A DNA stretch of 64,000 nucleotides from Pristiophorus japonicus (GCF_044704955.1 NC_091985.1:145080001-145144000), one strand, 5' to 3'. Counted from the first letter of the stretch, positions 36,900-40,630 are shown. Numbers and translations are program-made. Notes: generated from the letters alone by a model not told the origin.

Positions 36900-37224
36900 A
36901 TGAGGAGAGGCAATATGAACTAAATAGTACAATTAAACTTGTATTGAACCTTGGTTAGACCACACTTGGAGTGCTGCGTACAGTTCTGGTCGCCATATTA
37001 TAAAAAGGATGTAGAGGCACTGGAGAGGGTGCAGAGAAGATTTACAAGGATGATACCAGAACTGCAAAGTTATACCTATCAGGAAAGGATGAACAGGCTG
37101 GGTCTCTTTTCTCTTGAAAAGAGAAGGCTGCGGTGTGATCTAGTAGAGGTCTTTAAAATTATGAAAGATTTTGAGAGAGTGGATACAGAATGTTTCCACT
37201 TGTGGGGAAGAGCAAAACTAGAGG
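36900..37224 (+). mobile_element. CR1 fragment, left half (interrupted by Pack-hAT)
   Basis: VRPHLECCVQFWSPYYKKD; ends ...agcaaaACTAGAGG. Confidence 0.9.
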
Positions 37225-37696
37225 CAGTGGTGTAACTACACCAATGCAGCGGCATTGGGGCCCTCGCCTGAAGGGGGGCCCACCATCTGCTTCCTTGCCA
37301 ACTCGTTGGCGGTGTGGCTTAGCTGGAAAACGCTCTGGTCCATCCTCTTGGTGAAAGTTTTGAACCCGTCAACCCTGCTCTCCACCTCCTGCAGGTCGAG
37401 GGGGCTCTGTGGGGTGCTGAGCATCAGGAAGAAGTTGCCCCCCACCATGTCGTCCTTCTCGGCTTTCCTCTTGCCCTGCTTCCAAGCCTTCTCGTCGTTG
37501 AAAGTGAGGAAGTGCTGAAAGGCGTCACCGCGGACCAGCACCGGGTGGCTCGTCATGTGGTTCATCTACAGGGTCAGCCCTTTCTTCCGCTTGGAGATGA
37601 AGTCCTCCTCGAAGCGGCCGGTGGCTTGCTTCTCGGGGATGTGGGGCACCGGGAACTTCTCCACCAGCCGGCCGTACAGCCAATCGAAGTGCTTGA

Positions 37697-39177
37697 TGTT
37701 GTGTTCGCATAATGTATGTACCGTAACATTAGACCACTGAATGTATCTTCACACTGTATACACCATACCTATACCACCAGAGGGTGCTACTGGTGGAGAC
37801 TTAAGGGTCACCTGCACACTGCAGATAACCAAGTACAAAAGGGAGCTCACCTCACTGTATCGTCACTCAGGAGCTACAATAAATGGACTAAGGTCACAAC
37901 AGTTCAAGTACAATACCTTACCTCATGGAGTCATTACTAGAGTGCTTACATACATAACAACTGGCGACGAGATTACGAATTTCCATGCGCAAAATGGCTA
38001 ATCTAAGCAACTTTCAATTCGCTGATGGGGAACATTGGGATGCCTTTGCAGAAAGGCTCGAACACTTTTTCATCGCAAATGACCTGGCGGGAGACACACC
38101 AACCTCGCTGGCTGATAAGCGCAGAGCTGTCCTGCTCAGCAGTTGTGAGCCCACTGTCCATGGCCTCGTCAGGGACCTACTAGCCCCAGCAAAACGATAA
38201 CCAAAACGTACTTGGTTTGGCCATCCATTTGCAATATACTCATACACCTTTGACATCACTGGGTCACGTTTGGTTGCTCTACCAATCTCTTCAGCTGTGA
38301 CTGTCAGTTCATCAATGTATGAAAAATAAAACACTTCTTCCCTATCGGGTGTAACTTGTGATGGAGAAGGCAATCTAGACATTGCATTAACATTACTGTG
38401 ATTAGCTGATCGTCTGTATTCAATCTCATATGTATATGCTGACAAAATCAAAGCCCATCTCTGCATTCGGGCTGCAGCTAATGTTGGAACTGGGGACTTT
38501 GAATGGAGGATTGCTGTTAGGGGCTTATGGTCCGTCACGATGGTAAACTTACGACCATACAAGTATTTGTGAAACTTCTTGACCCCAAAAATTAATGCCA
38601 AAGCTTCCCTTACAATTTGCGCATAATTACTCTCACTGGCACTGAGAGTGCGTGAAGCAAAAGCAATTGGTCTCTCTTCCCCACTACTTAATACATGAGA
38701 GATTACTGCCCCAACCCACACAATCCTCCCTACAACCTCCAACCGTCCACTGCTGACCATTTCCCAGTGTCGTGGCAATAAGAACTTGGGGGGTCTACAG
38801 GCAGAGAGCCATTCCCTGGCAAAGACAAAATGCAAAGGCTTTGGGCACTCAAGTCGAGGGCCAGAGCACACAGTGTAAAAGCCAGTGGCACAAGACTTAG
38901 TGATGTTGTGTATGTAAATACCCTGTACACTCAATGTACAGTTGCATAAGACCACTGAATGTACCTTCACACTGTATACACCATACCCGTACCACCAGAG
39001 GGTGCTACTGGTGGAGACCTAAGGGTCACCTGCACACTGCAGGTAACCAAGTATAAAAGAGAGCTCACCTCACTGTATCGTCACTCAGGAGCCACAATAA
39101 ATGGACTAAGGTCACAACAGTTCAAGTACAATACCTTACCTCATGGAGTCATTACTAGAGTGCTTACATACATAATA
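37697..39177 (+). mobile_element. Internally deleted Gypsy LTR element (LTRs 37697-37959 and 38904-39177)
   Basis: Two similar LTRs with AATAAA; PBS-like TGGCGACGAG at 37962; gag start WDAFAERLEHFFIAND; CTTG duplicated on both sides. Confidence 0.92.
38208..38715 (-). mobile_element. Inverted Gypsy RNase H fragment, same family as the element at 41368
   Basis: VGAVISH...ERPIAFASRTL...TDHKPL...RMQRWALIL...AMSRLPSPSQVTP. Confidence 0.9.
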
Positions 39178-40377
39178 CTTGTAGCACTGGTTGACCAGGC
39201 ACTGGGTGTGGCTGGGCACCAGGCGGTACAAGGTATAGCTCTTGGTGCCCTTGAACTTGGTCTGCTTGGTGGGCTCGTCGTAGAGCAGGTGAATGGGTAA
39301 GAGTCCTCCTGCAACTCGGGCCGTGCGGGCTGGTCACCGCACAGATCTTGTCGCCGTCCTTGACGAAGCCGGCCGCCTCACCCAGGATGAACGCCTCGCC
39401 GCCCAACTTGACGAAGGTGGAGAAGCGGTTGAGGTTCCTGCTAACTGTGGCCGTACACTTGGAGGAGGAGGCGGCGGCCGAGGAGGAGGAGGACACTAAC
39501 CCCCCCGATATTCCAGCCGCTGGCCCCCTGTTCACTTGATAACGGCCCGTCCCGTCGAAATCCGAGAAGCCGCCACCGCCTCCCCCGCTCCTGGACAGCG
39601 GCTCGTCCGCCACCGTCGAGTAATCGTCCCAGATGTCGTCCCACTTGTCGTCATTGCCGCTGCCCGACGCCTTGTGCTGAGGCCCCGCCAGGACCAGCCA
39701 CCCGAGGCCGCTGTCGCCGTTTGGGCGAGAGGCGGGGGGGCAGAAGGTGCTGGCGATGGAACAGGCCGGCAGGGGGAAGCTGCTGGGGGTGCTGAGCCTG
39801 AGGCATCGCCGAGCTGTCGTAGCCGCCGGTCGGCACGTTGGCATAGTGGGAGGCGGGGGGCAGAAGGTGCTGGCGATGGAGCAGGCCGGCAGGGGGAAAC
39901 TGCTGGGGGTGCTGAGCCTGAGGCATCACCGAGCGCAGCATCGCCCCCGCTCCCGGACCACAGGATCTGCACGTACAAGGCCGGGAAGAGGCCCCTCTGG
40001 CCGCGGTTGTTGGCCCCCTCCAGCCAGCCCTTGATGTCGTGCTCGCTGTACATGGTCAGCACCTTGTCCTCCCGCACCGAGATCTCACCCACATTCTCGT
40101 TCTGGAAATCATCCCACCATCCGCACCCAGCTCAGCTCCGCTCCCGGACCCCGCGGTAACCCCCCACCCCGTAAACCCTCCCTCACACCGGTCCCAGCTC
40201 CCCCGAACACCGGCTCCCCCAGACCTCGTACTCCCTCTTCGGCCCCCTGGACCCCCTCACTCGAGGGGCGGCTGCACGAGGTCTTCCCTGGCCAGCTGCA
40301 CTTTTCCCTGTCGTTCTGTGATTTTTTTTTTTAATCTATGTTTGCATTGGGGCCCACATCCTCTAGTTTTGCCACTA

Positions 40378-40630
40378 ACTAGAGGCCATCAATATAAGAT
40401 AATCATCAAGAAATCCAATGGGGAATTCAGAAGAAACTTCTTTGCCCAAAGAGTGGTGAGCGTGTGGAACTCGCTACCACAGGGAGCAGTTGAGGTGAAT
40501 AAGCATACCAGGGAGAAGGGCATGGAGGGCTATGCTGATATATTTAGATGAGGAGGATGAGAGGAGGCTCGAGTGGAGCATAAGCGGTGGCACAGACTGG
40601 TTGGGCCAAATGGCCCATTTCTGTGCTGTA
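40378..40630 (+). mobile_element. CR1 fragment, right half
   Basis: Resumes TRGHQYKI...FRRNFFAQRVVSVWNSLPQ exactly where 37224 stopped. Confidence 0.9.

Follow-up and report, generated by a model that had tools for sequence, protein, structure and literature searches.

Earlier reports from animals describe gene capture by cut-and-paste transposons as rare, short and almost always single-copy. In bats and Xenopus, gene capture by Helitrons is said to have brought foreign sequence to high copy number through a burst of a DNA transposon. A survey of 100 animal genomes counted 370 Pack-TIRs, 208 of them hAT, and reports four multicopy families only, a median cargo of 224 bp and no case in the elephant shark; its multicopy examples include frog families of 3 and 5 copies and Ssk-FB4 of Drosophila, with 4 (Tan et al., 2021, PMC8277862). 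According to the same text, multicopy Pack-TIRs tend towards GC-rich DNA, and the route proposed for them is break repair or fork switching, then transposition. In plants, Pack-MULEs and Pack-hATs are non-autonomous TIR elements that multiply gene fragments, and maize hAT clusters comprise more than one hundred elements (Gisby and Catoni, 2022, PMC8903248).

We analysed a window of 64,000 nucleotides from the sawshark Pristiophorus japonicus (contig C9, 145.08–145.14 Mb, in a genome of 5.9 Gb), in which a fragment of the SNX18 coding region lies between hAT ends. This element is almost certainly a multicopy Pack-hAT. As in the animal Pack-TIRs described in the survey text, such as Pack-hAT-N8_XT of Xenopus tropicalis and Ssk-FB4, host sequence lies between the ends of one TIR family, the parent is located elsewhere and is not flanked by the transposon, the donor is GC-rich, the TSDs are distinct, and one junction may have a short microhomology (here a 3-bp overlap, GGC). 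Unlike these elements, the sawshark family has at least 119 copies, a cargo of ~1.55 kb with 440 codons, subfamilies of its own and a loaded form that is the commonest; unlike Ssk-FB4, it has no sign of selection (Tan et al., 2021). It shares with the plant elements, as reviewed by Gisby and Catoni (2022), a non-autonomous TIR structure that multiplies a gene fragment and an 8-bp TSD, but differs from them by its vertebrate host, its single cargo and the absence of multi-gene chimeras among the copies found. It also resembles the MER6 MITE with a SINE V domain, in which foreign sequence was amplified by a vertebrate DNA-transposon burst, but whose cargo, as described there, derives from another repeat and whose carrier is mariner (PMC6887750).

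Pack-TIRs are already known in animals; what is new is plant-scale copy number in a vertebrate, together with a long coding cargo and, in a vertebrate, the dominance of the loaded form over the cargo-free forms. The sawshark family represents an amplification on the scale of Pack-MULEs, by which a fragment of a conserved endocytosis gene was multiplied more than 100 times. No description of it was listed in the literature searched, which took in few of the subscription journals.

The window copy and its hAT carrier

The pack element of the window (37225–40377) interrupts a CR1 LINE (Table 1). The initial annotation had described a perfect 8-bp TSD, 14-bp ends matching at 10 of 14 positions, and a single CR1 disrupted by the insert, and all three were verified; the flanks align end to end with the intact CR1 at 27404–27610 of the window (...GKSKTR / HQYKI...). 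Pfam searches agreed with an SNX18 fragment ending early in the BAR domain, as they placed SH3 at 39532–40131(-) and BAR_3_WASP_bdg (PF10456, E 4.7e-27) at 37236–37565(-), the latter covering model positions 1–72 of 236. In contrast, the whole 3.15-kb insert had been taken for the pack element, a 1,481-bp LTR retroelement having been overlooked; because this retroelement splits the cargo, the pack element alone is ~1.67 kb. The non-coding 5' part of the cargo, annotated as ~140 bp, measured ~220 bp.

Table 1. Features of the window copy and its insertion site (positions in the 64,000-nucleotide window)
Feature	Position	Strand	Remarks
Host CR1 LINE, 5' of the insertion	36948..37216	+	ORF; alignment to CR1 at window 27404-27495
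TSD ACTAGAGG, 8 bp, left	37217..37224	.	Identical to right copy
hAT left end, 57 bp	37225..37281	+	14-bp TIR, CCAATGC and GGGCCC subterminal motifs
SNX18 cargo, 3' part	37282..37691	-	PX C-terminal half, first 72 BAR model positions
Nested LTR retroelement with TSDs	37692..39182	+	Element proper 37697-39177, 1,481 bp
SNX18 cargo, 5' coding part	39183..40110	-	SH3, low-complexity linker, PX start
GC-rich SNX18 5' leader	40111..40333	-	T/A run at its junction with the hAT end
hAT right end, 44 bp	40334..40377	+	TIR differs at 3 positions from the commonest form
TSD ACTAGAGG, 8 bp, right	40378..40385	.	Identical to left copy
Host CR1 LINE resumes	40386..40500	+	Matches CR1 at 27539-27610 of the window, continuing the left part in register

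The nested retroelement has LTRs of 263 and 274 bp that are 95% identical, an RT RNase H remnant and a 5-bp TSD (CTTGA/CTTGT). Other pack copies do not have it at the same place, and it arrived after the window copy had landed in CR1. The 3' part of the window cargo is 95.7% identical to the parent gene, and its frame reads into the hAT left end, where it is terminated by a TAG close to the TIR. The 5' coding part carries frameshifts, a 120-bp tandem duplication (39735–39934) and a 27-bp deletion at the start codon. The leader matches the parent locus piecewise (positions 5793–5881 of locus L073) and exceeds today's parent in length. The left end, by which we mean the side lying 5' of the autonomous copy's transposase, is 97% identical to the autonomous copy L146 and common to empty elements as far as GGGCCC; the right end is 91% identical to L146.

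The TIR, 14 bp long, is CAGTGGCGTAACTA at both ends; it belonged, along with 8-bp TSDs, to an hAT of ~3.8 kb from which deletion derivatives remain. The best-preserved copy of this hAT (L146, C9:158.25 Mb) contains both subterminal ends and has lost the left TIR; its transposase frame is broken and includes the hAT dimerisation domain (PF05699, E 1.7e-10), and relatives with PF14291 and PF05699 are up to 61% identical. None of 10 matches contained an intact transposase. The assignment to hAT made at the outset is supported by a transposase-bearing partner that has both ends in common with the loaded copies: the TSD is 8 bp, the TIR falls within 10–25 bp and the partner within 2.5–5 kb, with a dimerisation domain. 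These features (8-bp TSD, 14-bp TIR starting with CAG, 3.8-kb autonomous element with a C-terminal dimerisation domain) are those of the hAT superfamily as presented in PMC3942097 and PMC12511174. The TIR is identical to that of Tip100 at 8/11 positions, a lead suggesting that the carrier possibly belongs to the Tip group.

Exact motifs from the two ends were multicopy. The right-end motif gave 54 matches (40 loaded, 14 cargo-free) and the left-end motif 59 (44 loaded, 15 cargo-free), with none for the reversed controls. Loaded copies outnumber cargo-free ones about 3:1 and are the commonest form of their family. The 30 cargo-free sites found include the decayed 3.8-kb transposase element; the 12 cargo-free elements that have both ends all align to L146, as deletion derivatives with later repeat insertions, and 11 of the 12 have an 8-bp TSD matching at 6/8 positions or more. 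In one cargo-free subfamily the right end is likewise just 41 bp. The 41-bp end shared by both forms has 2.0 mismatches in loaded versus 1.94 in cargo-free copies, and this equal load indicates that the two are similar in age. The proposal of a general gene-capturing family did not survive, as every one of the 54 and 59 end-motif matches was either SNX18-loaded or an hAT deletion derivative, and no second cargo was found among the matches listed (the best-scoring candidates and these motif matches). The empty element L078 contains a LINE piece, and a search with it returned CR1 fragments; the loci obtained from that search (L107–L135) were left out of all counts and served as repeat background only.

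Spread of the SNX18-loaded family

At least 119 SNX18-loaded copies were identified, on 24 contigs: 112 SNX18-bearing copies among 133 sites examined, one copy with the leader only (L097) and six of 16 new left-end sites. Genome searches returned 40 matches with the right end, 42 with the cargo and 110 with the BAR model, and the family accounts for about a hundred false SNX18 matches in the sawshark genome. Capture-recapture gave 131–153 loaded and about 47 cargo-free copies, figures that are rough because exact motifs favour well-preserved ends.

An 8-bp TSD matching at 6/8 positions or more was present in 61 of the 69 loaded copies having both ends (53 at 7/8 or more, 23 at 8/8), compared with 187 of 20,000 random flank pairings (0.9%). 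In the first 31 copies, flank identity was 0.82 at a length of 8 bp versus 0.25–0.31 at the other lengths from 4 to 12 bp. The other copies with TIRs and 8-bp TSDs, whose existence the initial annotation had left to be checked, therefore exist, and they share one chimeric structure with 60 distinct TSDs among the 61. At target sites, T is favoured in position 3 and A in position 6. The flanks were unlike across 60 loci, and alignments ended at the element ends in 11 pairs, bar short repeat matches.

Loaded copies are ~13% apart from each other, and a tree of the 72 copies with enough columns was a star (terminal 4.30 vs internal 0.39). The same two junctions between cargo and hAT were found in all 31 left ends listed and in the right ends listed. 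The SNX18 piece was likely captured once, then spread in one old burst. Two internal-deletion forms transposed anew: the first consists of 26 copies on 15 contigs, with 20 distinct TSDs among the 21 that have both ends, the second of 8 copies on 6 contigs. The deletion junction of the 26-copy subfamily has no microhomology, and a repeated independent origin of this deletion was for that reason judged unlikely. From the sequence comparisons, the burst appears to be old and, as the alignment supports, later than the divergence from those sharks and rays that it includes. Absolute dating was discarded, as the rate of 7e-10 per generation published for the epaulette shark (PMC10587355) converts 4.2% non-CpG divergence into ~60 million generations, a figure that must be wrong for this lineage.

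Origin of the cargo

The parent is the SNX18 gene at C2:114.73 Mb (locus L073), which has an intact open frame of 566 aa and its exon 2 68 kb downstream, and whose exon 1 encodes a sequence 100% identical to that of P. japonicus sorting nexin-18a (SNX18a). Of its paralogs, one on C21 has two exons and an identity of only about 70%, and another on C9 is multi-exon; we take these to be SNX33 and SNX9. Alignment of the cargo to the parent mapped both breakpoints inside exon 1: the cargo corresponds to positions 5793–7205 of L073, that is, the 5' leader and codons 1–440 of 605. It amounts to about 1.55 kb, including a 1.3-kb coding stretch, and runs opposite to the transposase. A search of 173 kb around the parent detected no hAT sequence, so that the ends are not simply contiguous with the parental locus, nor is the place of capture visible there. 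The parental region has a GC content of 67% and a CpG observed/expected ratio of 0.88, and the family lends itself to testing whether GC-rich cargo favours transposition.

The commonest letters of the copies differ from today's parent at 3.1% of positions, with coding indels all in frame, and ~130 bp of the cargo leader have no match in today's parent. The copies retain LVLAG and PPASR, which match other sharks and not today's parent, and they also carry residues exclusive to the sawshark among ten aligned proteins; together these indicate that an older, working allele of the sawshark lineage was captured. The copies thus preserve an older SNX18 allele; a new functional gene is not demonstrated. 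From the native ATG, the captured frame stayed open up to a stop inside the hAT left end.

We consider it highly probable that the loaded copies form a non-autonomous hAT family that arose by a single DNA-level capture of SNX18, spread in a burst driven by the transposase of a partner, and then decayed. A break inside one hAT copy would have been filled from the CpG-island exon of SNX18, the fill replacing all but the two short hAT ends, likely in one event of template switching while DNA was repaired or replicated. The chimera, likely mobilised by the transposase of an autonomous partner that has since decayed, landed at many sites with distinct TSDs, and the two internal-deletion forms were re-inserted in turn; its cargo afterwards eroded at a neutral rate with loss of CpG. 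Copies no more than about 5 Mb apart would later have exchanged sequence by ectopic gene conversion. This fits the route proposed for multicopy Pack-TIRs in PMC8277862, in which the chimera transposes after break repair or fork switching, here onto a GC-rich exon. The hAT sequence left in loaded copies measures 44 bp at the right and about 57–66 bp at the left, far less than the 200 and 150 bp of ends that Tol2 needs (PMC2768751), and these copies are a natural test set for the minimum length of hAT ends in vivo. At the left junction, GGGCCC of the hAT overlaps SNX18 by the 3 bp GGC, or by 4 bp if GGGC stood in the old allele. The right junction is a short T/A run with no clear microhomology, and because of this and of the unmatched part of the leader a second donor is possible.

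DNA-level capture is inferred because both breakpoints lie within one exon, with no intron kept or lost. The same observation leaves room for an SNX18 mRNA or cDNA as the template with which a broken hAT was repaired: the cargo begins ~90 bp 5' of the parental ATG, is intronless and has no clear promoter DNA, and LINE reverse transcriptase is abundant in the genome. We regard such an RNA template as unlikely, since the cargo has no poly-A, both its ends are inside exon 1 (the 3' end ~245 bp before the splice donor), exon 2 sequence is absent, and the 3-bp overlap at the left agrees with the DNA template switching described in PMC8277862. Still less probable is a composite origin, in which two hAT copies in or beside SNX18 exon 1 would have mobilised the DNA between them by end bypass. 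Plant Pack-hATs are reported to acquire DNA via neighbouring insertions (PMC8903248), but long inner parts would then be expected, whereas the sawshark ends stop within 44–66 bp, inside hAT sequence, and the 173 kb around the parent hold no hAT remnant.

Decay of the copies and exchange between linked copies

In 26 near-full copies, divergence from the column yardstick was 6.9%, with 4.2% outside CpG and 16.9% at CpG. Amino-acid changes numbered 2,599 versus 2,748 expected (N/S 0.95; two regions, scored in 101 and 107 copies). A single frame over codons 1–440 was absent from all 112 copies. No annotated pack-derived protein was found, as a search with the BAR-plus-tail peptide returned three full SNX18 among seven longer-protein candidates. 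Among sequencing runs, no RNA run was listed as a match, and the four DNA runs listed come from a single sample and study that may have supplied the assembly, which makes them no independent evidence. Judged by the substitution patterns, the cargo decays neutrally, and today the copies are most likely without any role. Stop codons were slightly below expectation (79 vs 97) and the copy L169 had an N/S of 0.49, alone among 83 copies and with a noisy denominator owing to few synonymous changes; both are points against pure neutrality.

A further alternative is that selection kept the amplified cargo, either for a truncated SNX18 (SH3-linker-PX, its BAR not working) or for regulatory RNA made from it; in favour of this, the captured frame spanned the native ATG to the stop in the left end, the biggest deletion subfamily is in frame, L028 is open for 331 aa from the ATG, and the ATG is retained in 74 of the 87 copies with the start region. 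We nevertheless find it very improbable, given the overall N/S, an N/S of 1.0 in the in-frame 26-copy subfamily itself, the lack of any intact copy, and CpG decay fourfold over background. A processed pseudogene, segmental duplicate or assembly artefact with TIR-like ends by chance has nothing in its favour beyond the missing intron and can be neglected in view of 60 sites with distinct 8-bp TSDs, ends identical to those of a transposase-bearing hAT, unrelated flanks and copies about 13% apart. The initial annotation was right that this is not an ordinary retrocopy: a LINE-made processed pseudogene was rejected for the lack of poly-A, the ends in mid-exon 1 and a TSD fixed at 8 bp outside the TIRs, and segmental duplication for flanks that differ in 60 loci and for the 11 pair alignments that stop at the ends. 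Helitrons have neither TSDs nor TIRs; both exist here, and capture by a Helitron was rejected.

Closely linked copies resembled each other more than unlinked ones. The 12 pairs within 5 Mb shared 71 rare derived non-CpG changes versus 6.1 expected (4,904 pairs), a number reached in none of 1,000 permutations. Five or more shared changes were observed in 7/12 near pairs, compared with 3/4,630 pairs on different contigs and 0/262 farther pairs on the same contig; the other five near pairs had no excess sharing. Near pairs were not in excess in number (15 vs 11.7 expected), in contrast to the excess local insertions reported for maize hAT (PMC8903248), and their flanks were not shared. Pairs from different subfamilies also shared changes. 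The full copy L065 and L071, a member of the 26-copy subfamily, are 84–89% identical in 5' windows and 95–98% in 3' windows (mean of unlinked pairs 86.6%, n = 144), and the window copy is closest in its 5' region to L233, a member of the 8-copy subfamily 3.5 Mb away (93.8% vs a median of 88.6%). Because near pairs are not in excess and subfamilies are mixed, local hopping was rejected as the only cause. From these patterns, ectopic gene conversion with a cis bias seems the likeliest cause of the likeness of linked copies. Late local hopping possibly accounts equally well for the sharing in linked pairs whose members are alike in structure (L176/L177, L044/L066, L207/L208). The family is also a natural test set for the fall-off of ectopic gene conversion with distance.

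A joint reading of these results, which we offer as tentative and rather doubtful, is that the CpG-island exon conferred a selfish advantage: by replacing an AT-rich interior it might have kept the ~45- and 60-bp ends open, or shielded them from silencing by likeness to a host gene, so that the loaded form out-transposed the cargo-free form 3:1. The founder would have been a self-contained truncated SNX18 minigene, and its ~130–150 near-neutral copies would document how ectopic gene conversion depends on distance, across megabases, in the germ line of a vertebrate.

The 27-bp deletion at the start codon is common to the window copy, L233 and L065, and L071 has a variant of its junction, all on C9; elsewhere it was seen in one of the 90 copies scored. 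It is flanked by two ACGAT repeats and may be recurrent.

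Surviving frames and structural variants of the hAT copies

Among the SNX18-loaded copies, the longest frames left are those of two loci: L028 (C5:118.23 Mb), in which 331 aa are readable starting at the native ATG, and L177 (C12:62.94 Mb), in which a 399-aa stretch without stops spans PX and the start of BAR. Internal units of about 120 bp were found repeated in L226 and L227, two members of the small deleted subfamily (see table), and another locus, L152 (C4:277.34 Mb), has three tandem repeats of the left TIR together with the TSD.

A nested piece in the left subterminal region is present in the autonomous hAT element and in most cargo-free copies; loaded copies are without it. 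The helix-turn-helix remnant between its inverted repeats was recognized by a profile match (PF13384, E 2.2e-6), and we take the piece to resemble a Tc1/IS630-type insert.

Features of the window, the hAT copies and the SNX18 paralogs
Feature	Location	Details
Tandem-repeat array, long	window 1500-5600	source of repetitive open frames
Nested LTR retroelement	window 37697-39177	internal deletion; LTR identity 95%; RNase H remnant
Simple-repeat tract	window 62200-63200	purine-rich
Small subfamily	L226 (C8:236.47 Mb), L227 (C8:236.77 Mb), L086 (C2:291.7 Mb)	parent 6048-7036 deleted
Cargo-free subfamily	L102, L103, L253, L260, L261, L263, L081	~1.0 kb; only about 41 bp of right end retained
Nested piece, hAT left subterminal region	L146 (autonomous hAT) 2620-3340; L155 2004-2408; L102	~125-bp inverted repeats; helix-turn-helix remnant
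Parent paralog, two-exon gene	G000:C21:63.51-63.54 Mb	
Parent paralog, multi-exon gene	C9:110.63-110.67 Mb	

Ends of the window copy

Read on the opposite strand, the TSD of the window copy has the same sequence as subterminal bases of the element itself. It was also observed that the left flank (37212-37230) and the right end (40354-40372) form a 19-nt inverted repeat (89%), which includes two changes in the right TIR of this copy; the repeat may reflect either chance or templated mutation.

Parent paralogs and other sequences of the window

The two-exon paralog of the intact SNX18 gene is presumably SNX33, and the multi-exon one, SNX9. Outside the tandem-repeat array and the simple-repeat tract, the long frames of the window all belong to remnants of LINEs and LTR elements, and sequence akin to the nested LTR retroelement was observed at 43058-43236.
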